Shown here in pieces: positions 7,558 through 38,783 of a stretch of 64,000 nucleotides of DNA. The notes below the pieces were generated by a model. That model saw only the letters and a program-made list of their open reading frames with translations. It made no database searches and was not told the DNA's origin. The DNA is taken from positions 499,061-563,060 of the forward strand of contig CAZKGL010000001.1 of assembly GCA_964552565.1 (NCBI GenBank), written 5' to 3'. The stretch's first letter is position 1; the number at the start of each line of letters is the position of its first letter. Origin of the DNA: an uncultured Gammaproteobacteria bacterium (lineage in GTDB: Bacteria; Patescibacteriota; Patescibacteriia; UBA9934). The translations under genes and the position numbers were made by a program.

Positions 7558-8418
7558 TTAGAGCCCGGACGCGATGGAGTCGGCGAGCGCGTCGCTGCGG
7601 CTGCGGAGTTTCGGAAGCTTGGTATTGACGAGCGCCGCGAACTTCGGCGCCTTGGCCGGACGCGGGAACGCGCTCGAGGGGACGGGGACGCGCGGCGTCG
7701 TGGTGCCGGTCAGCGCGAACACCTCTTCGGCGTATTCGAACATGGTGACCGGTTTCCCCTCGTTCACCACATGATACACGCCCGGTGCGACATCGTGCTC
7801 CACCATCCACAAGGTCGTTTCGGCGACGTCCTTCGTATAGGTCGGCATGCCGACTTCTTCATGCACGATGCGCAATTCCGGCTGCTCCTTTGCCAGGCGC
7901 ATCATGAGGGAGACAAAGCTTGGCTTTGACACGTCCGACATGCCGGCCGGGCCGAAAATTTTTGAGAGCCGGCAAATGAAATACGTCGCCCCGCTTTCGC
8001 GGACGAACCGCTCGCCGGCGGCCTTCGTTTCCCCGTACTTCGAGCACGGCGCTCCGGTCGGGTCGTCCTCCGTGTAGCCCTCCGGCTTGTCGCCGGCGAG
8101 GACGTAGTCGGTACTGTAGTGGACGAACAGGATGCCCGCCTTCGCCGCGGCCTCGGCGAGGTGCTTTGGGCCGAGGGCGTTCACGGCGTATGCGAGCGGA
8201 TACACTGCCGGATCCTCCACCTTGTCGACGAAGTTGTATGCGGCCGCGTTGATGATGCAATCCGGCTTCGTTTCGGCGACGAACCGCTGCACCGCGTCGT
8301 TGTCGGTGATGTCGAGCTCGCCGCGCTCCGTCGCGATGACCTCATGTCCTGCACGCGAAAATACGGCCGCAAGCTGCGTACCAAGATTGCCCCGCGCGCC
8401 AGTAAGGAGCACGATCAT
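7558..8418 (-). CDS. rmlD: dTDP-4-dehydrorhamnose reductase
   Basis: MIVLLTGARGNLG Rossmann N-terminus, RmlD-like length and YxxxK; operon with rmlC-rmlB. Confidence 0.85.
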   Translation of the reverse strand: MIVLLTGARGNLGTQLAAVFSRAGHEVIATERGELDITDNDAVQRFVAETKPDCIINAAAYNFVDKVEDPAVYPLAYAVNALGPKHLAEAAAKAGILFVHYSTDYVLAGDKPEGYTEDDPTGAPCSKYGETKAAGERFVRESGATYFICRLSKIFGPAGMSDVSKPSFVSLMMRLAKEQPELRIVHEEVGMPTYTKDVAETTLWMVEHDVAPGVYHVVNEGKPVTMFEYAEEVFALTGTTTPRVPVPSSAFPRPAKAPKFAALVNTKLPKLRSRSDALADSIASGL

Positions 8419-29349: not shown

Positions 29350-29745
29350 TTAATTGAGCGCGTACAATGCGCCATTCAGGTATGTGGCGAAACTCACCCA
29401 TACGAAGTACGGTGCAAGGAGCCATGCGGCAAGTTTGTCGACGCGGACAAACGCCATGATAGTGAAAAGGATGGCGAACCATAGCCCGATGATGACGACG
29501 AACGCGATGTCCGGGCGGTGCAAGCCGAAGAAAATGGGCGACCATGCAAGGTTCAGTGTGAGCTGCACCGCAAACATGCCAAGCGCATGGCTGCGTTTCG
29601 CTGTACGTTTCGCAACCCATACTCGCACCGCTGCGACCGCCATCAACGTGTAGAGCACGGCCCACACCGGGCCGAACACCTCACCCGGCGGCGTCAGCGC
29701 AGGTTTTGTCAGCGTGGCATACCACGCAAGTCCTTCCTCCGTCAT
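29350..29745 (-). CDS. tspO: TspO/MBR tryptophan-rich sensory protein
   Basis: 5-TM, Trp-rich, WxPxF-like motifs characteristic of TspO. Confidence 0.75.
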   Translation of the reverse strand: MTEEGLAWYATLTKPALTPPGEVFGPVWAVLYTLMAVAAVRVWVAKRTAKRSHALGMFAVQLTLNLAWSPIFFGLHRPDIAFVVIIGLWFAILFTIMAFVRVDKLAAWLLAPYFVWVSFATYLNGALYALN

Positions 29746-29751
29746 ATGTGA

Positions 29752-30054
29752 TTATGCAATCGCAAGTTCTAACGGCTTCACCTGTCGCTTAATCGCTTTT
29801 CCAGAGGCCTTTTGTTCTACAAGAAGATCGTACCGCGACTGTAAATTGAGCCAAAACTCTGCAGAGGTACCAAAATATTCAGACAACCGGAGCGCGGTAT
29901 CCGCAGTCACTGCACGGTCGCCATGCACGATTTCGTTAATCCTTCGGCGTGGCACGCCAATATCGTTCGCGAGTTTATATTGGGTAATTCCCATCGGCTT
30001 CAAAAACTCCTCTTCCAGAATTTCTCCCGGGTGGATAAACATTGCCTCACTCAT
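29752..30054 (-). CDS. higA: HigA-family XRE-HTH antitoxin
   Basis: HPGEILEEEFLKPMGITQYKLANDIGVPRRRINEIVHGDRAVTADTALRLSEYFGTSAEFWLNLQSRYDL is the canonical HigA signature. Confidence 0.8.
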   Translation of the reverse strand: MSEAMFIHPGEILEEEFLKPMGITQYKLANDIGVPRRRINEIVHGDRAVTADTALRLSEYFGTSAEFWLNLQSRYDLLVEQKASGKAIKRQVKPLELAIA

Positions 30055-30092
30055 ACCAATTTTTTTACTCGTCGCGAATTACTCTAATGATA

Positions 30093-30827
30093 CTACATAT
30101 CAAGCCGGGCGATTTCCTGAGTATACGCACAGAATTCACAATCTTCCGCCGCCTTCGGGATCTTCGATGAACGCAAACACGTGCGCATGGCCATGAGTGC
30201 GCCGTCGACCCACGAGTCGTCGCCTTTGTACTTCAACAACTTCACTTTGAATTCCAGCCTCCCGTCGAATGCCGCGAGATCGGTGCGACCGTTGACGTAG
30301 ACGAAGTATCCAGTGTCCGACACCCTGAATCCGTTCCTGCGGAGCAGCCACTGGTACACCTCCATCTGGCGCTTGTAGCCCATTTGCCATTCGCTATCGA
30401 GGTTTACCTCGCCGTCTTTGCTCGTCGCTTTGTAATCGACGACGATGAGCTCGCCCTTTTTGTTCACCCAGATGTCATCGACCGCGCCGGTCACGAGGAA
30501 CCCGCTCCTCGTGTGCACAAACTGCACGCCCTTAAAATTCTCCCGCCACACGTCCATGAGCTCGTGCGAAAACGGTACGGCGTTCACCTTGTACTCCGCC
30601 ATGAGCGGGTGCGCGGTCTTCGCGACGCGATGCACGTCGAACTCCTTCTTGAGGAGCGCATCAACGGCCTTGTTCAAGTTGAACGGCGGCCCACTCGGCC
30701 TCCCAATCCCCAAGCGCCTATCCAAATAAAAGCACCGCTTACAATCGATGAACAACTCAATCTTCGACCTACTCACCTTGTACGGCGTCTTCGCCTTGGG
30801 GTCGTAGAGATTCCGCGTGCGGGGCAT
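30093..30827 (-). CDS. Cas4/RecB-like PD-(D/E)XK nuclease with 4-Cys (Fe-S) cluster
   Basis: N-terminal CxxC (CKRC), motif III VVDYK, QxxxY (QMEVYQ), C-terminal CEFC; start at MPRTRNLY. Confidence 0.65.
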   Translation of the reverse strand: MPRTRNLYDPKAKTPYKVSRSKIELFIDCKRCFYLDRRLGIGRPSGPPFNLNKAVDALLKKEFDVHRVAKTAHPLMAEYKVNAVPFSHELMDVWRENFKGVQFVHTRSGFLVTGAVDDIWVNKKGELIVVDYKATSKDGEVNLDSEWQMGYKRQMEVYQWLLRRNGFRVSDTGYFVYVNGRTDLAAFDGRLEFKVKLLKYKGDDSWVDGALMAMRTCLRSSKIPKAAEDCEFCAYTQEIARLDM

Positions 30828-30899
30828 ACATTTGGTTAAGCCCAAGATGAAACTCATGCGGGCATGCTGACGAGTCTTAGACCTCCGAGGAACGTCAAA

Positions 30900-31124
30900 T
30901 TATTGATCTAATTGGATCTCCCACCTGTCCTCCTGAGAAAGTTTATATTCGTCCATGATCTCGTTGAGCTTTCGGGCGATCTCGTGACGGCGCATCAGTT
31001 TTTCTGGGTCAATATGGTTGAACACTATAGGCACACCGGGAACCATGTCACGGGCAGACATAGCTGTTTCACGTTTCAGTGTCTTCCATTCTTGGAGAAT
31101 TTGATCAAATTGCTGCTGATCCAT
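30900..31124 (-). CDS. hypothetical 74-aa protein downstream of res
   Basis: 10 nt after res stop; low-G+C codon usage like the island. Confidence 0.4.
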   Translation of the reverse strand: MDQQQFDQILQEWKTLKRETAMSARDMVPGVPIVFNHIDPEKLMRRHEIARKLNEIMDEYKLSQEDRWEIQLDQ

Positions 31125-31133
31125 ATTGGCATG

Positions 31134-33812
31134 CTAGTCATGGTTTACAAAGGCCCTAATACACTCAGCGAAAGTCTTTGGACGAAACTTTTCCCACTCC
31201 TCCTGCTTCACGTATAGCATTTTGTATTCTGTTCCCGCCTTTAGATTGTTTACATCGTCACACCACTGCCGAAGCCGTGCGATCTTCCGCGAATCGTCGA
31301 GATCCTCCCTGCCCTTCGTCTCGATAATATAGACTGTGTCATCTGCCAGCTTCACGAAAAAGTCCGGATAATAATAGGCGATGCTCCCGTCCGCATTCTT
31401 ATAATCGATACGGAATTGGACTTCGTAATAGTTTTTTGCGAATGAAACCACATCCTCACAATCATCGAGAAATTTTCCGAATTCGAGTTCAAGATGGCTA
31501 TCGCCAACAATCTTGTTGAAGACGCTCTTCTTTGGAGTGATGTATTCGTTCTTATCACTAACAAACGGCCGGGCTTGGCTGATCTTGATGTAGTTACGTA
31601 CTTCCGCCTCTCCTTTATCAATAACGGTAAGATCATTGATTGCCTTTTTGAAGGTCTCCTCAATGGTCCTACGCGCTTCAATTTCCGATAGGTTACGGAC
31701 TAGGTTAGAGTCCTCAAGATCGACCGTTTGACCAAAGAGACGGTCGCACACAAAATCTCGTACTAATGGGAACAGCTGATCAAAGCCACTGACCATGCGA
31801 AGTTCACGCATGATGCCCTGCGTGTAGAATCCGATGGCATTTCGCCAGTCGGGCATTACACCTTCTGGAAGCTCAACGATGTGATCAGTTTCCCCGGTTA
31901 CAATTTTCTTGAAGACTATTTCGCGTTGCTCTTGCGCGGTGAATTGCTTGTATTCTACCGGCCTAAACTCTAGATGAGTAACATCAATGTCAGAGATGTT
32001 TTTATATTCTCGAAAAATACGTGGAGACAGGACAGGAAGTTGAATATCGAGCTTCTCAATATCCTTCTTAAGATTTTCATGATCGATCTCAACGATGACC
32101 GGCGCAACGGCGCTTGAATCCCTGTCCATTCGCCGCGTCTGCAGTTCCACACCCTCTGCCTTAATCGACTCAACGAAATCCATGAACGCGGGGGTGCCGA
32201 TAACGCTGACGTATTCCTCAACTCCTCTACCGAAGTACATGAGCCGCAAACCGCGACCAAGCGTTTGCTCAGGAAGGATGTTGCTTTTTGACGCGAACGC
32301 GCGAAGGCCAACGATCGTGGTCACGTTTCGTACGTCCCAGCCCTCTTTCAACATGAGAACCGAAACGACAGCAAGATACGGGCTCTCAAAGCTATCTAGT
32401 TCATTCGATTCCCGACGGAGTTTATCGAGCTCCTCTTTATCCTTATGCTGAATGGTCTCCTTAATTTCGCCAGAGCGATTTGTGTGAATCGTTAATATCT
32501 TCCCTGCGAGTTCTGGGAAGTTTTGCTCGAGGTGCTGAGCGACCGCGTCACAGTTCGTGGTGTCATCAGTCATGACGAAGAGTACCGCTTTTTTTCCAGT
32601 CTTCAGGTGCTGCTCGTATGCTTTACGCCATTCGATAACACCGAGGTGGAGATATTCGCGGTAGCGCTCAATAAAGTTACTACTCTCAACCTCGTTGAGC
32701 TTCGCACGACTCGCCTGGTCCGGAAGAACCGGATGTTTTACGACGTTTTGATGGATCGCCTCAACAAGAGGATAATCGCAGACGGTTTGCACGAAGATCT
32801 CGCCACGCTCATTCTTCGGCGTTGCGGTAACGTCGATCTGCAATGACAACGCACGACCTTTCATCTTCAGGCGGTTTGAGATGTCTTCAATTGATTTAAA
32901 CCATGCGAGCTTCTCGTCGTGAATATGATGCGCCTCATCGTTGAGAACCATGAGCTCATCTACCTCACGCACAATGTCACCGAGATCAACGCCCGAGTTG
33001 GTCGTTTTCGTAACAGGACGGTCTCCCAAAAAATAATCAGTCGTGTTTTCATCCTCAAAAGTCGCCGCCTGGACGTCGCGATCGTACACACGATGAATGT
33101 TCGTCAGGAAGATATTTCCACTCGGAGAGACACCGCTCACTTCGTCCTGCAGGTGCACCGTAACCTGAAAATCATCCTGCCAGTTTTGCCCCTCGTAGCC
33201 ATTATCAGGAAGAATGGGATCGCCAAAGAAAATCTTGCATCCCTCAAAGTCTCCTTTGATGCGATCCAAAACGATGATGTTGGGTGCAATCAACAAAAAG
33301 TTCTTCGACATCAACGAATCCGGTTCGTAAATGCGATGGAAGTAACTCCATGCAATAAGCAGGCTCAACACTTTTGTCTTGCCCGCGCCCGTCGCAAGTT
33401 TCAAAACAAAACGCGGCCAGGCTTCCTTAAACATGCTTCCCGACACACGGCCCGAACTGTCGTACCGCAACAGGTCATGTGGAGCCCGTGCGCCGGCGAC
33501 TTCATAAAGGTAAATCGCTGTCTCTACAGCTTCACGCTGAGCAAAGTAATACCTGAATGTCTTTGCAACGCCATCAACCCAATCGACATGATCTTCAAGA
33601 AACCACCAACGCAGGAGCGCACGAGTCGTCGGACTCGCGCCTTTGTAATCGTTATCGCGCCACTCCTTCACCAACTTTCGCACCTCAGGCACGAGCGGCG
33701 GCATGAGTTTCTCCCACTTCGATTCTCGCAACGCCTCATCAGCCGGAAACCATCGGGTTTTCGGATCGAGGATTGCGTAGGGATCTTTTGGGAAACCAGG
33801 ATGGAGGGCCAT
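31134..33812 (-). CDS. res: type III restriction enzyme Res subunit (SF2 helicase + C-terminal PD-(D/E)XK)
   Basis: motif I LATGAGKTKV, motif II LNDEAHH, C-terminal nuclease PDFFV...YIIETKG. Confidence 0.85.
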   Translation of the reverse strand: MALHPGFPKDPYAILDPKTRWFPADEALRESKWEKLMPPLVPEVRKLVKEWRDNDYKGASPTTRALLRWWFLEDHVDWVDGVAKTFRYYFAQREAVETAIYLYEVAGARAPHDLLRYDSSGRVSGSMFKEAWPRFVLKLATGAGKTKVLSLLIAWSYFHRIYEPDSLMSKNFLLIAPNIIVLDRIKGDFEGCKIFFGDPILPDNGYEGQNWQDDFQVTVHLQDEVSGVSPSGNIFLTNIHRVYDRDVQAATFEDENTTDYFLGDRPVTKTTNSGVDLGDIVREVDELMVLNDEAHHIHDEKLAWFKSIEDISNRLKMKGRALSLQIDVTATPKNERGEIFVQTVCDYPLVEAIHQNVVKHPVLPDQASRAKLNEVESSNFIERYREYLHLGVIEWRKAYEQHLKTGKKAVLFVMTDDTTNCDAVAQHLEQNFPELAGKILTIHTNRSGEIKETIQHKDKEELDKLRRESNELDSFESPYLAVVSVLMLKEGWDVRNVTTIVGLRAFASKSNILPEQTLGRGLRLMYFGRGVEEYVSVIGTPAFMDFVESIKAEGVELQTRRMDRDSSAVAPVIVEIDHENLKKDIEKLDIQLPVLSPRIFREYKNISDIDVTHLEFRPVEYKQFTAQEQREIVFKKIVTGETDHIVELPEGVMPDWRNAIGFYTQGIMRELRMVSGFDQLFPLVRDFVCDRLFGQTVDLEDSNLVRNLSEIEARRTIEETFKKAINDLTVIDKGEAEVRNYIKISQARPFVSDKNEYITPKKSVFNKIVGDSHLELEFGKFLDDCEDVVSFAKNYYEVQFRIDYKNADGSIAYYYPDFFVKLADDTVYIIETKGREDLDDSRKIARLRQWCDDVNNLKAGTEYKMLYVKQEEWEKFRPKTFAECIRAFVNHD

Positions 33813-34336: not shown

Positions 34337-36619
34337 CTAGATCATTATCTCAACAACTCTGGTGGTATCGTTCCCAAAAATGTCGATTACTTTCACTGCG
34401 ACCTTACGCCGACCCGGCACGCACTGTACTGCAACTGATGTTAATTCAAGCTCGCGATCTTTACGAGTGCGGAAAGATTGCCATTCGTTTTCGAAAATAT
34501 ACTGGCCAGTCCATTCTTCGTCATAGTCAACCTTTGTCGCCTGCTCGAGTTCTACGGAGCCGTCAAGCATGATTTGTTTTGCCACCACGTCTTCCGCAGT
34601 GCGTACGATCTCTTTCTTGCTTTCGTAATTGAAGTCGACAGCCCAATAATCGATCCAGTCAGTCCATTTACCCGTCATTATTTCACGTGTGATAATTTCT
34701 GTTTGCTTATCTTTAGTCAACTTAATGAGATTGCCATCCTGCAAAACGATCTTCGATCCCCCACCCTTGATGTTTTCTTCGATTTCCGCGAGATCGTCTT
34801 GGTTGTAAAAAACCTTAAAATTCGCAAGCTCTATAGCGAGCTTATTCTTCTTTACAATCGGATTCACCTCAACGAACGCGAGATCGTAGAATTTCACCTG
34901 TCCGCGCTCAACGGCGCGCTTGTCGAAAACTTCGTTCGGAATCGTTTTAAACTGAAGGTCGATGCCATTGTTTTTTGCGACATCGGCATCCATGCCCATT
35001 TCCCAGCCAAAGCCGAGGACGTCCGCTTTCGTTATACCTTTTTCACGACATTCTGCGATTACCGACTCAACGAGCGAATGCGAGACTGGAAACTCGATCG
35101 GACCAATAGCAACAAGCCGATCGCGCTTCTTTCCAACAAAATTTCTGAAACCGTTTACCGGCTCAGCCTTATATGCTGAGAGAATAAGTGACCTAAAGTC
35201 ATCTTCTTTTTTACGGCGTAGCTGCTCCTTTTCTTCCGCTCGCAAGTCACCATCGACGTTTACAAATTGCTTGCGTTCGTATTTACCAAGGTTGAGAATT
35301 TCAAACGCACGATACGACTGACCCTCTTTCTTCAACTGTCGTTGCACTGCAATCATTCGCTTACGAGATGCGTGAATGCCGAAGCGTCCAAGGTCACTGC
35401 CAATCCATTTACGGTCCAACTTTTCAGAAACAGCTAAAGTCGTCCCTGAGCCGATGAAAAAATCAGCGACAATGTCTCCGTTGTTCGTTGAGGCTTGGAT
35501 AATTCGTTCAAGAAGAGCACTGGGCTTCTGAGTCGGATAGCCAGTATCTTCAACTCCGCGCACCATCGGAATGTCACTCCATAAATTTTGAACGATCATT
35601 CCCGGCCACTCATCCAAGAATTCCTTACGATAAATCAAAGAACCATTTTCTGGAAAATATAGCCTACCCTCCTCATCCCACTTACACATTTTTTCCTTAG
35701 TGACTGCCCATCCGTTTTTTGGTGGCTTCCTTCCTTTGTATTCATACCGTAGCGTCGGTCGTGGTGCCGGATTCGCCATGTTATTAATTCTGTATCGCCG
35801 ACCGCCCTCGTCAATTTTATTAAAAATATCTAACAGCTCATCGGTATTATCACTTTTGTTAAATTGTTCATTGAAAATAAACTGCTCACTTTTGGAATAG
35901 AAAAGTATGGTGTCGGTCTGAGTGCGAAAACTTCCTGCGATGCTAGTTCCACCGGTTCGTCGTTTCCAAATTATCTCCGATTGGAAATTTTCAGAACCGA
36001 ATATTTCATCAAGGATCAACCTCATGTAGGAATTCACTCGCCAATCACAGTGAACATAAATCGAGCCGTTATCGGCAAGTAAATCGTGCATGAGCCTTAA
36101 TCGCTCGTAAATCATCGAAATAAAGCTATCCGCTCCTCTTCCCCACGTATCACGATAGGCTACCTCCTCGATGATGCTCGGTTTTTTTGTAAACTCCTCC
36201 CCACCAATCTCAATGTTCATCGAAAAATCTGCACCGACATCGAATGGTGGATCGATGTAGATCAGCTTAATGCCACCTTGGGCTTCGATTTCCTTCCGCA
36301 AAGGGCCATTCTTGAGTGCAGAGAGAATCAGCTTATTGTCTCCCCAGATAAGTTTATTCGTCCAGCCCTTAGCCTGCCGACCAGAAAGATCAAAAAGATT
36401 CTGCTGCAACTTCACTTCTCGCTCACTGCGGGGCTCGTCGATATGTTCGATTGACTGAAACGGGAGCACGACGTTCATAACCTCGTCGGTCTTGCCGTTC
36501 CAAACCAACTCAACCTGGCGATTATCGCCAAACAGTAAAAACCGATATTTGTCCGGCAAGGGTTTCCCTTGCTCGAGCATCCTCGTGATATCGCGAATTT
36601 CGTTCGGTTGAAGCTGCAT
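34337..36619 (-). CDS. mod: type III R-M Mod subunit (N6-adenine DNA methyltransferase, 760 aa)
   Basis: DPPF motif IV (LIYIDPPFDVG), AdoMet motif I region, large C-terminal extension. Confidence 0.85.
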   Translation of the reverse strand: MQLQPNEIRDITRMLEQGKPLPDKYRFLLFGDNRQVELVWNGKTDEVMNVVLPFQSIEHIDEPRSEREVKLQQNLFDLSGRQAKGWTNKLIWGDNKLILSALKNGPLRKEIEAQGGIKLIYIDPPFDVGADFSMNIEIGGEEFTKKPSIIEEVAYRDTWGRGADSFISMIYERLRLMHDLLADNGSIYVHCDWRVNSYMRLILDEIFGSENFQSEIIWKRRTGGTSIAGSFRTQTDTILFYSKSEQFIFNEQFNKSDNTDELLDIFNKIDEGGRRYRINNMANPAPRPTLRYEYKGRKPPKNGWAVTKEKMCKWDEEGRLYFPENGSLIYRKEFLDEWPGMIVQNLWSDIPMVRGVEDTGYPTQKPSALLERIIQASTNNGDIVADFFIGSGTTLAVSEKLDRKWIGSDLGRFGIHASRKRMIAVQRQLKKEGQSYRAFEILNLGKYERKQFVNVDGDLRAEEKEQLRRKKEDDFRSLILSAYKAEPVNGFRNFVGKKRDRLVAIGPIEFPVSHSLVESVIAECREKGITKADVLGFGWEMGMDADVAKNNGIDLQFKTIPNEVFDKRAVERGQVKFYDLAFVEVNPIVKKNKLAIELANFKVFYNQDDLAEIEENIKGGGSKIVLQDGNLIKLTKDKQTEIITREIMTGKWTDWIDYWAVDFNYESKKEIVRTAEDVVAKQIMLDGSVELEQATKVDYDEEWTGQYIFENEWQSFRTRKDRELELTSVAVQCVPGRRKVAVKVIDIFGNDTTRVVEIMI

Positions 36620-36623
36620 ATAC

Positions 36624-37358
36624 TTATTTCAGGAGATCCCAGGCAACCAAGTAAGAGGTGACGTCGTGTTCCATATTCCCAAGGTACACCTTCCCATCGC
36701 GAATTTTAATGTTTACGCGATAGCGTGTGCCGTTGCTGACAGGAAGTATAGCGCGTTCACGCACCTTTTGCTCAATGACGTGATATGGAAGAACTACGAA
36801 CTTCGTGGCCTCTTCTCCATGCAAAACAAAGACGTAATACACGTTCCCCGAGCCGTGACGATCAAAAGAAACCTTGCGGATATCGAAGACAAAGATGTTA
36901 AACCGATTGATGTTCGACGTCTTCACCTGGATGCCGAACAGCTTGTTGTCCTTGGTCGCGATGATATCTAAGCCAGTATCGACGCTCATGATGCTGGCGT
37001 TATAGCCAAGAAACAAAAGCTCGGCACAAACCGCATGCTCACCAGCCTTACCCGTACAGCCGCTGTCGATCGCAAGTTTTTCAACAATTGCTTTCTCTGC
37101 TGGCGTTTCTGGCGTCTCTTCCACCTTTTCGACCGTCTGGTTGCCACTCAAGTCATACACGCCGGGACCAACACGCTTAAACGCTGAATGCTTTTTCTTT
37201 GCATCAGTGGAAAGCCGCGCACTCATTGTCATTTCTGGCGTCGCTCCGTTCGTCTCCAAGAGGCCCCACTCGAGCGCAAGCTCGGTAATGCGCGCATAGT
37301 GAAGTGGTTCCCCCGCGCGCTTTAGCACTTCGGCTGCTGCCTGCTTAAAGGAGTTCAT
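36624..37358 (-). CDS. HARE-HTH domain fused to PD-(D/E)XK-like nuclease domain
   Basis: N-terminal FKQAAAEVLKRAGEPLHYARITELALEWGL (HARE-HTH), C-terminal E...D(TGLDII)...IQVK; start at MNSFKQ. Confidence 0.55.
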   Translation of the reverse strand: MNSFKQAAAEVLKRAGEPLHYARITELALEWGLLETNGATPEMTMSARLSTDAKKKHSAFKRVGPGVYDLSGNQTVEKVEETPETPAEKAIVEKLAIDSGCTGKAGEHAVCAELLFLGYNASIMSVDTGLDIIATKDNKLFGIQVKTSNINRFNIFVFDIRKVSFDRHGSGNVYYVFVLHGEEATKFVVLPYHVIEQKVRERAILPVSNGTRYRVNIKIRDGKVYLGNMEHDVTSYLVAWDLLK

Positions 37359-37360
37359 AT

Positions 37361-37786
37361 CTACGAGTTGAAGGGCAAGCCCGCACCGTCCTCGAGTTTC
37401 CCATCCCACCCCTCCGCCCTCTTTTGCACGTCCGCAAAACACACTTCGTCGTGCTCACCTTCTTTTTTGTCACACTCCTTTGCATGGTCGCGTTCGGCCA
37501 AGCGTTCGGCAAGGAGCGGCCAGAATTCGTCCTCGGCAACCGCGTGGAGCGCCGCGTCTGCGTCGTCGAAGAACGCGTCGGTCCAATGGTCCTCGTCCTG
37601 CGTATCCGGGGGAAACGTCATGCCGAAGTCTTCCGCGCGATCCATGAGTTGTTCCCACAGCTCCGCAAGCTCTTCGTCGAGCTTGTCGCCGCGCAGCCGC
37701 GCGACGTGTTCGTCAAGCACGATCGCCGCCGCAACTGCGCGCGTGAGAGACAAATAGTGTTTTGTGTGTAGTGTCAAATCAGCCAT
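37361..37786 (-). CDS. highly acidic 141-aa protein (candidate DNA-mimic/regulator)
   Basis: ~27% Asp+Glu, start MADLTLHTKHY; stop abuts start of HARE-HTH nuclease gene; higher G+C than neighbours. Confidence 0.45.
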   Translation of the reverse strand: MADLTLHTKHYLSLTRAVAAAIVLDEHVARLRGDKLDEELAELWEQLMDRAEDFGMTFPPDTQDEDHWTDAFFDDADAALHAVAEDEFWPLLAERLAERDHAKECDKKEGEHDEVCFADVQKRAEGWDGKLEDGAGLPFNS

Positions 37787-37913
37787 AGAGCAGGTCGAGC
37801 GTATCCCTTTTTCCCCATCTGTACAATCCTTGACAACCCTCCCTTTTGTGCTATGCTCGGGTTGTGTCACCACGAAAAGACCCCCTGCAGGTTCCGTCCT
37901 GCCGGGGTGCTTT

Positions 37914-38399
37914 TCATTTCGAGCGGTACTGAAGCTTCTCCTTGAGCGCATCAATGCCCGCCAGGCGCGACTTCGCAGCTTTCTTGAGCAGCCCGGAGTA
38001 GCGACGGCTGTTTGGCACAAGGACGACGCGGAGCTTTTCGAGAGCATCAAGATGCCGCACAAGGCAAGAAAAATCGCCATCACCGCTTACGATAACTGCC
38101 TGGTCATATTCGCCGAGGTCGATCATTGCCTGGAGCACGAGCTCGGCATCGATATTCCCCTTCAGGCGGCCGTCGCTATCGGGAATTGTCGGCTTAAAGA
38201 CGAGGACGAAACCCGCCTCCTGGAGATGTTGGTAAAGACTGTTATTGCCCGGGACAAACCCGATGAAGTAGTACGCCTTTGTGACGCCGTAATGTTCCTT
38301 GAGGTAGATGCGAAAACGGCGATGGTTGATCTTCCAACCAAGGTCCCGCAACGCCATTGTGACGTTGTTGCCATCGATAAATGCGTAGTTGCTTGCCAT
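37914..38399 (-). CDS. NYN-domain (LabA/DUF88-like) nuclease
   Basis: AFIDGNNV...IVSGDGDF acidic residues of PIN/NYN fold. Confidence 0.7.
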   Translation of the reverse strand: MASNYAFIDGNNVTMALRDLGWKINHRRFRIYLKEHYGVTKAYYFIGFVPGNNSLYQHLQEAGFVLVFKPTIPDSDGRLKGNIDAELVLQAMIDLGEYDQAVIVSGDGDFSCLVRHLDALEKLRVVLVPNSRRYSGLLKKAAKSRLAGIDALKEKLQYRSK

Positions 38400-38432: not shown

Positions 38433-38783
38433 TTAGAGCTCCGTATATTTCTTGTGGTTGCCGTAGGACTTGTCGACGGGATACTTCAGTGCGGCCTTCT
38501 CGAGCTTTGCCGGCAACGCGGTCGCAAGGTCGATGTCGAGGTCATGCGCAAGGAGCAGCACCCAGTACAACACGTCCGCGAGTTCGTCCGCGACGTCTTC
38601 TTTGTGTGTCGCAAGATACTGGGCGAGTTCGTCACCATTCTTCCACTGGAAGTGCTCGAGGAACTCACTCGCCTCGAGGTTCAGCGAGATGGCGCAGTCT
38701 TTGGGGTTGTGGAACTGCTTCCAGTTGCGCGCCTCGCGGAAATCGATGAGGCGTTGCGTCAGCTCGTGGATGATGTCGCTCAT
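38433..38783 (-). CDS. MazG-like nucleotide pyrophosphohydrolase
   Basis: EASEFLEHF...ELADVLYWVLLLAHDL EExxE/ExxD motifs. Confidence 0.7.
   Translation of the reverse strand: MSDIIHELTQRLIDFREARNWKQFHNPKDCAISLNLEASEFLEHFQWKNGDELAQYLATHKEDVADELADVLYWVLLLAHDLDIDLATALPAKLEKAALKYPVDKSYGNHKKYTEL

Follow-up and report, generated by a model that had tools for sequence, protein, structure and literature searches.

A previously undescribed family of small, strongly acidic helical proteins that travels with restriction-modification operons in Patescibacteria

Introduction

Ocr (phage T7 gp0.3) and ArdA are small, non-enzymatic, strongly acidic proteins that are associated with type I restriction-modification (R-M) systems. 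Here we describe a family of host proteins that shares these traits and its founding member, a protein of 141 amino acids encoded in a 64,000-nucleotide stretch of contig CAZKGL010000001.1 (this whole stretch is referred to below as the window). The gene lies between genes for an NYN RNase and a HARE-HTH nuclease, at the edge of a type III R-M cluster. In the composition reported for it, Ocr carries 34 acidic and 6 basic residues in 116 amino acids (PMC4872106); by that count the window protein is less densely charged (26% acidic and 10% basic, versus 29% and 5% for Ocr). The action proposed below, in which an acidic protein occupies a nucleic-acid-binding groove, would match that of Ocr and ArdA and is a prediction for the present family. 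Unlike Ocr and ArdA, however, the family is host-encoded, in or beside an R-M operon, and neither Pfam nor Foldseek against the PDB gave any similarity to these proteins.

Acidic regulators have also been described from a bacterial chromosome. DMP12 and DMP19 of Neisseria are, according to PMC3643605, small, acidic, chromosomally encoded "conserved hypothetical" proteins, and they control a DNA-binding protein of the host. The present family is likewise chromosomal, small, acidic and hypothetical, but it sits in R-M operons rather than serving in the regulation of a nucleoid protein or transcription factor, and it has no PDB match.

Location inside R-M operons has served to predict defence genes ("guilt by embedding"). 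One of these is HEC-09, a single-gene NYN candidate that was detected within Hma systems and conferred no protection when it was tested (bioRxiv 10.1101/2024.01.29.577857). The same work cites PrrC as almost exclusively embedded in type I R-M systems, and such screens have so far drawn on RefSeq genomes (bioRxiv 10.1101/2024.01.29.577857). Like PrrC and the HEC and PDC candidates, members of the acidic family are accessory genes nested between hsd genes, and the NYN proteins encoded beside them match the HEC-09 model. They differ from the HEC and PDC candidates in having neither a PADLOC model nor an effector domain, and the window copy sits at the 5' edge of a type III cluster.

RNase antitoxins of the VapB-VapC or barstar type provide a further comparison. 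Here too, a small acidic protein is encoded beside a PIN-like or NYN RNase, and in one relative of the window (locus L001) the RNase has been lost and its partner kept. The acidic family differs in that it has no DNA-binding or known antitoxin domain and is not translationally coupled to the RNase; in addition, the partner has been lost from a locus with an intact NYN gene (L053), and most members have some other gene upstream.

Results and Discussion

An unannotated family of acidic four-helix proteins

The window protein begins with MADLTL (MADLTLHTKHYL) and ends with GAGLPFNS. The start at 37786 is supported because the aligned methionine begins all homologues. A search of 5.8 billion proteins returned only five relatives, with 60 to 72% identity, and a few distant proteins of about 145 amino acids were gained by searching 1.8 billion cluster representatives with a profile. 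When these were included, the widened profile retrieved 112 proteins of 135 to 185 amino acids, all of them annotated as "hypothetical" and none with a Pfam domain. Since five homologues and a wider family were recovered in this way, the frame is, as judged from conservation, a genuine conserved gene and not a chance open reading frame (ORF). Long profile matches P0012, P0013 and P0018 were treated as low-complexity sequence. The family comprises more than 110 clusters, with members of about 140 to 170 amino acids, and its two parts were joined by hhalign, which aligned the close clade around the window protein with 40 main-family members over 130 columns (97% probability, E = 1.2e-10).

An earlier note on this DNA had estimated that about 27% of the residues are Asp or Glu and that the net charge is near -20. 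These estimates were close: the protein contains 37 Asp and Glu (26.2%), 14 Lys and Arg and 7 His, for a net charge of -23 and a pI of 4.36. About 64 long ORFs were called in the window, and among them it is the most acidic per residue (-0.163), ahead of the next at -0.14. The family as a whole averages 23% Asp plus Glu and a net charge of -15, and 25 alignment columns are at least 60% Asp or Glu across the family. On the evidence of these alignments, acidity is a conserved family trait.

No meaningful match to the window protein or to distant family members was found in Pfam, NCBIfam, PHROG, PADLOC or the PDB sequences. When the window protein and seven family members were compared with Pfam-A (hmmscan, E ≤ 1), no anti-restriction family was matched, nor did Pfam return any of the polymorphic-toxin immunity families (Imm, SUKH, SMI1-KNR4). 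The window protein and five family members were also without a match in PADLOC-DB v2. Weak ferritin matches obtained with phmmer (M ferritin, E = 0.15) were discarded as compositional, and neither the family profile nor Foldseek gave any sign of membership in the ferritin-like or di-iron bundles.

The earlier note had proposed a structure prediction with AlphaFold. With six sequences, AlphaFold2 reached a predicted local distance difference test score (pLDDT) of 72; with a 111-sequence alignment, it gave a confident model (pLDDT 90.1, predicted template modelling score 0.72) of four helices and a floppy C-terminal tail, in which no enzyme domain was recognised. The predicted helices span residues 8-32, 38-54, 68-104 and 114-133. 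Acidic residues gather in helix 2, the 55-67 loop and helices 3 and 4, and helix 1 is hydrophobic and basic. Foldseek found no neighbour of the model in the PDB or BFVD. As far as sequence and model reveal, the protein is without a recognisable catalytic or DNA-binding domain. These data define a previously undescribed family of small, strongly acidic, all-helical proteins.

Phages and plasmids are essentially free of the family. There were no relatives among 2.9 million viral contigs of IMG/VR, a single weak match among 50,697 phage records, and a single match, on a chromid, among 72,556 plasmids.

Two members depart from the usual architecture. In Elusimicrobia (L036, 2535-3536), the protein carries a C-terminal extension of about 180 residues that ends in a SEC-C zinc motif, the only fusion found in the family. 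An Alicyclobacillus genome (L050, 5509-6462) has two tandem family copies, the only immunity-like trait seen.

The family travels with R-M operons

We scanned JGI metagenomes and one genome for each species and obtained 124 loci; pooled with the earlier loci, these reduce to 116 non-redundant ones. ORFs were called locally with a crude caller and neighbours were assigned by jackhmmer seed labels, with the seed identities fixed by Pfam; an independent Pfam census agreed with the label-based one. Loci were searched for with a 40-sequence alignment (A4), so the census leans to the subclade that carries the motif YLGNWMANA; the whole-family alignment (A3) has no conserved stretch. All counts are of raw loci, with kinship among them ignored.

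Genes of R-M systems recur around the family gene. HsdM occupied position -2 in 20 of 80 loci, and position +1 was taken by HsdS in 14, AntA in 5 and an N6_N4 methyltransferase in 3 of 101 loci. Two or more genes were present on either side in 57 loci; 18 of these had HsdM upstream together with HsdS downstream, and 25 had an R-M gene of any kind within three genes. Among genes more than five positions from the family gene, R-M genes numbered only 2 of 142. In L014, L016, L024 and L027, the family gene lies 2 to 20 nucleotides upstream of hsdS. The family thus travels with R-M operons, mainly in Patescibacteria, and its commonest location is between hsdM and hsdS in type I systems. The window copy flanks the 5' end of a type III cluster and is not between subunits.

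The gene immediately upstream (position -1, 102 loci) is more varied. NYN is the commonest, in 15 loci plus the window, and 85% of the loci have another gene there. Labels other than NYN were Bro-N in 9, RhuM/Fic in 6, LPD3-like in 5, HsdM in 3, DUF3800 and AbiEii in 2 each, and PemK in 1. At least four subfamilies, with less than 40% identity between them, are represented among the NYN partners.

The type I R-M operons of Patescibacteria (L007/L008, L012, L014, L016, L019, L067 and similar loci) act as cargo hubs. Between hsdM, hsdS and hsdR, they carry NYN, Shedu SduA_C, ThsB-type TIR, DUF3800, Bro-N, AntA, RhuM/Fic and LPD3-like genes as well as the acidic family.

A resident gene beside an acquired type III island

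The features of the window locus are collected in Table 1. The acidic gene is placed as the earlier note described it, between the NYN and HARE-HTH genes with its stop codon beside the next start: TAG occupies 37363-37361 and is followed by 2 nucleotides and the ATG (37358) of the HARE-HTH gene. The note was also right that the G+C content of the acidic gene (0.599) exceeds that of its flanking genes (HARE-HTH gene, 0.506; NYN gene, 0.541; mod and res are at 0.455 and 0.488), which it had taken to suggest that the gene was acquired separately. That suggestion is reversed by the genome background, which is 0.62 to 0.63 on both sides and resumes left of about 29750: because of this background, the flanking genes are the G+C outliers and the acidic gene is not. 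Its synteny with MazG-like and YgjP-like genes also speaks against separate acquisition. The acidic gene therefore looks native, and the type III restriction island that runs from the HARE-HTH nuclease to about 29750 looks acquired. The local picture is thus corrected to one of a resident acidic gene with a newly arrived R-M island adjoining it. No convincing direct repeats or att sites were found at the island ends.

Table 1. Features of the acidic gene and its surroundings in the window
Feature	Position	Strand	Evidence
Host TspO gene, beyond the left end of the island	29350-29745		
Left end of the island: 74-amino-acid ORF, Cas4-like PD-(D/E)XK nuclease (30093-30857), HTH_3 (29752-30054)	29752..31124	-	Pfam, PADLOC
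Type III Res helicase-nuclease (ResIII and C-terminal endonuclease-like domain)	31134..33812	-	Pfam
Two small ORFs between mod and res: 73 amino acids; 97 amino acids with a hydrophobic helix	33815..34331	-	ORF list
Type III-like Mod DNA methyltransferase (N6_N4_Mtase)	34337..36619	-	Pfam 3.2e-42
HARE-HTH and PD-(D/E)XK nuclease gene, first gene of the island	36624..37358	-	Pfam HARE-HTH 8.9e-15; PDDEXK_5 6.9e-05
Acidic 141-amino-acid protein gene, founding member of the unannotated family (FAM)	37361..37786	-	Translation, homologues, AlphaFold2 model
Codons of H101-x3-C105-x6-H112-x3-C116, helix 3/4 junction	37439..37486	-	Invariant in close-clade alignment A1
Upstream spacer of the acidic gene, with a possible weak sense promoter (TTGTAC-17-TACGCT)	37787..37873	-	Alignable in L001
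Sigma-70-like promoter TTGACA-16-TATGCT with TG, antisense to NYN and directed away from the acidic gene	37830..37857	+	Promoter scan
Stable hairpin between an A-run and a T-run, shaped like a bidirectional intrinsic terminator; overlaps the NYN stop	37874..37915	.	-25.9 kcal/mol, z = -4.1
NYN (LabA-like) RNase gene, 161 amino acids	37914..38399	-	Pfam NYN 1.3e-15; PADLOC NYN and HEC-09
MazG-like gene, host backbone (YgjP-like, MazG-like, then the acidic gene)	38433..38783	-	Pfam; synteny in L001, L002

The acidic gene, the HARE-HTH nuclease gene, mod, the two small ORFs and res follow one another with gaps of 1 to 5 nucleotides, and the 74-amino-acid ORF begins 9 nucleotides after res. With gaps this short, the promoter of the acidic gene probably drives the island by readthrough. 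The PDDEXK_5 match of the HARE-HTH gene is weak and lies below the Pfam cut-off. A partial match to the c-di-AMP riboswitch at 37300-37345 (E = 0.27; 17.5 bits versus a 38-bit threshold) was dismissed as chance. The two small ORFs between mod and res had no Pfam or PADLOC match; they are candidates for embedded genes in their own right.

Relatives of the window locus show what has stayed and what has changed. In a second sample (L055), the order of the MazG-like, NYN, acidic and HARE-HTH genes, followed by mod, is identical; since the four genes compared are 100% identical, L055 represents the same strain and is not independent. More distant close-clade relatives keep a backbone of PLD, Band_7, YgjP-like, MazG-like and acidic genes. 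The interval between the MazG-like and acidic genes of L001 (7621-7738) contains an NYN pseudogene, in which residues 142-161 (75% identity) directly follow residues 1-19 (89% identity); about 120 internal codons have been lost, and the acidic gene downstream is intact. This remnant indicates that the upstream NYN gene is ancestral and was later lost in L001. L002 has no NYN gene.

Downstream of the acidic gene, L002 has a type II system (EcoO109I and a C5 methyltransferase), L056 a type I hsdM and L003 a GHKL-type ATPase gene. Because the downstream neighbour differs in this way among relatives, the site after the acidic gene is a slot in which R-M cassettes (types III, II and I) have been exchanged. 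No homologue of the HARE-HTH nuclease was found beside any other family member (about 115 loci), and the pairing recurs only in the identical strain L055.

The close clade has invariant residues of its own. Seven His and Cys are invariant in the window clade, namely the four of the H101-C116 motif together with H27, H67 and H81. The motif is kept with small changes of spacing in P0008 and P0009 and is absent from the main family; it suggests a putative structural zinc site at the helix 3/4 turn. A metagenome scan with the close-clade alignment (A1) found no further members, so the close clade rests on five Logan contigs and the window.

Proposed role and alternatives

An inhibitor or nucleic-acid-mimic role is a reasonable hypothesis for this family, because its members have no recognisable enzymatic domain, their acidity is conserved and they are strongly tied to R-M and other defence genes. 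The window protein belongs to this R-M-associated family, and its gene is a long-resident chromosomal one, with the G+C of its host and conserved YgjP-like/MazG-like synteny, that ancestrally followed NYN. R-M cassettes have been swapped in beside it, in the window the HARE-HTH nuclease with the type III Mod and Res. We tentatively favour the view that the protein is acidic and non-enzymatic and binds, or otherwise regulates, a defence protein that itself binds nucleic acids. On this proposal, it would act stoichiometrically, its conserved negative surface filling the nucleic-acid-binding site of a defence protein and thereby restraining or regulating it. The NYN RNase would be the first candidate for such a partner and the R-M methyltransferase/specificity complex the second, and the HARE-HTH nuclease is unlikely as a specific partner. 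A more far-reaching form of the proposal is doubtful: that the R-M operons of Patescibacteria contain, in this family, a new class of nucleic-acid mimics made by the host, which would gate either the RNase effectors embedded there (such as NYN) or the R-M complex itself. In that case, the conserved divergent promoter and hairpin RNA described in the last section may contribute to the gating.

Several observations weigh against a regulatory partnership of this kind. In L053, the acidic gene is cut to about 30 residues and the NYN protein, 53% identical to that of the window, is intact; with the loss of NYN from L001, the two genes are separable in both directions. The variable neighbour at position -1 implies no single partner. 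The two genes are also not translationally coupled, because spacers of mostly 54 to 167 nucleotides and, in the loci with short NYN genes, a terminator-like hairpin separate them. Members outside Patescibacteria (Vescimonas, Cohnella, Syntrophorhabdaceae) are found in non-defence contexts. Finally, the motif YLGNWMANA..R, invariant in the main clade, is not conserved in the window clade; with this motif replaced and its own His and Cys residues invariant, the window clade may have diverged in function from the main clade.

A serious rival, though an unlikely one, is that the gene is instead a bystander, a lineage-specific core gene for a helical, possibly zinc-stabilised protein with a housekeeping or stress role, perhaps tied to the adjacent MazG-like and YgjP-like genes. 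It would then merely flank a hotspot of R-M integration, and its acidity would be unrelated to defence. The host-like G+C of the gene is consistent with this account, as are the YgjP-like/MazG-like synteny kept in L001, L002 and L055 and the Vescimonas and Cohnella members among housekeeping or miscellaneous genes. A different downstream cassette in each relative is what a hotspot predicts, and the clade-specific invariant His and Cys suggest a structural or metal role. The main-family gene, however, lies inside type I operons rather than at a hotspot edge (between hsdM and hsdS in 18 of 57 loci), and its adjacency to NYN recurs across at least four NYN subfamilies. R-M genes are near the family gene in about 40% of loci, versus 1.4% among genes more than five positions away, which would be unexpected if the association were neutral.

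The constant feature of these loci is R-M of any type: the close clade has types I, II and III, and the main family has hsdM/hsdS. This pattern is what would be seen if the protein were a generic R-M modulator, a DNA mimic supplied by the host that would temporarily occlude the groove with which the methyltransferase/specificity complex binds DNA. Such a protein would temper restriction for a new cassette or for unmodified sites, as in restriction alleviation. The frequent position of the family gene 2 to 20 nucleotides upstream of hsdS, the conserved negative charge and the place of the acidic gene at the head of the co-directional type III cluster in the window fit as well. We nevertheless consider this account quite improbable: the fold resembles neither Ocr nor ArdA nor any solved DNA mimic, the charge is less extreme than that of Ocr, and many family loci have no R-M gene nearby. 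A constitutive mimic made from the same operon would, moreover, block protective methylation too.

The earlier note had suggested that the protein neutralises the adjacent HARE-HTH/PD-(D/E)XK nuclease until it is triggered. An immunity factor specific for this nuclease would suit an acidic, non-enzymatic protein, the co-directional genes with their 2-nucleotide stop-start gap, and the identical arrangement in L055. The latter is the same strain, however, with 100% identity over four genes, and none of the other loci (about 115) has a homologue of the nuclease; relatives with 62 to 72% identity have type II, hsdM or GHKL-type ATPase genes downstream. Because the nuclease lies in the low-G+C island and the acidic gene has the G+C of the host, the pairing is recent, and a dedicated immunity role is very improbable. 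Least credible of all is a classical anti-restriction protein of mobile-element origin (the Ocr, ArdA or KlcA type) lodged in the chromosome, an origin that small size and acidic composition would allow, since the family matches no Pfam family, anti-restriction ones included, has no Foldseek match in the PDB or the viral models of BFVD, is nearly absent from viral, phage and plasmid collections, and has host-like G+C and conserved chromosomal synteny. What stands of the reading in the earlier note is a non-enzymatic, acidic, defence-associated protein; the acquired insert, the likeness to Ocr and ArdA and the tie to the HARE-HTH nuclease do not.

We regard the acidic family as a lead rather than a demonstrated new system. 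If it regulates defence enzymes, then acidic mimic-type proteins are not confined to phages and plasmids but are also used by hosts in their own restriction operons, and the family would offer a handle on how streamlined Patescibacteria control multi-layered R-M hubs with NYN, Shedu-, TIR- and DUF3800-type cargo. Were it a nucleic-acid mimic, it would give defence operons a "safety catch" at the level of protein, for which no characterised system offers a counterpart. Whatever its function, the family is unannotated, comprises more than 110 clusters, has a confident fold and a clear genomic signature, and is a ready candidate for guilt-by-embedding screens.

The upstream spacer

In the window, 127 nucleotides separate the NYN gene from the acidic gene; spacers between NYN and family genes are usually 54 to 167 nucleotides long. 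This spacer carries the near-consensus antisense promoter and, next to it, the hairpin listed in Table 1, and the promoter would give rise to a predicted RNA of about 50 nucleotides that ends at the hairpin. An antisense promoter of this form (TTGACW-N15-17-TAnnnT, often after TGC) was found just upstream of the family gene, and directed away from it, in 19 of 116 loci, whereas the sense orientation was found in 2 and about 1 is expected by chance. It is seen whatever the upstream gene (for example, in L004, L014, L016, L053, L061, L074, L083, L111-L113, L118, L119 and L123), and it is degraded in L001 (TTGTCA-15-TTATTC).

The hairpin is conserved in L001 (about 7738-7780), L003 (about 2248-2290), L111, L113 and L118, with the loop GGACGRAACC retained and compensatory changes in the stem. 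Rfam returned no credible family for it; the sole overlapping match, MAT2A_E, scored 20.6 bits versus a gathering threshold of 46 bits. The hairpin is conserved even where the acidic proteins are only about 25% identical, which exceeds the need of a plain terminator.

A DnaA-box-like 9-mer (TGTGGATAA/TTATCCACA) occurs in either orientation upstream of the family gene in related loci, about 20 nucleotides ahead of the start codon (range about 18 to 57), and is not present in the window. It is 26 times commoner in the 150 nucleotides upstream of family genes than elsewhere in the loci, and it is exact in 11 of 110 loci (for example, L007, L016, L024, L027, L063, L068, L072, L074, L096 and L112).

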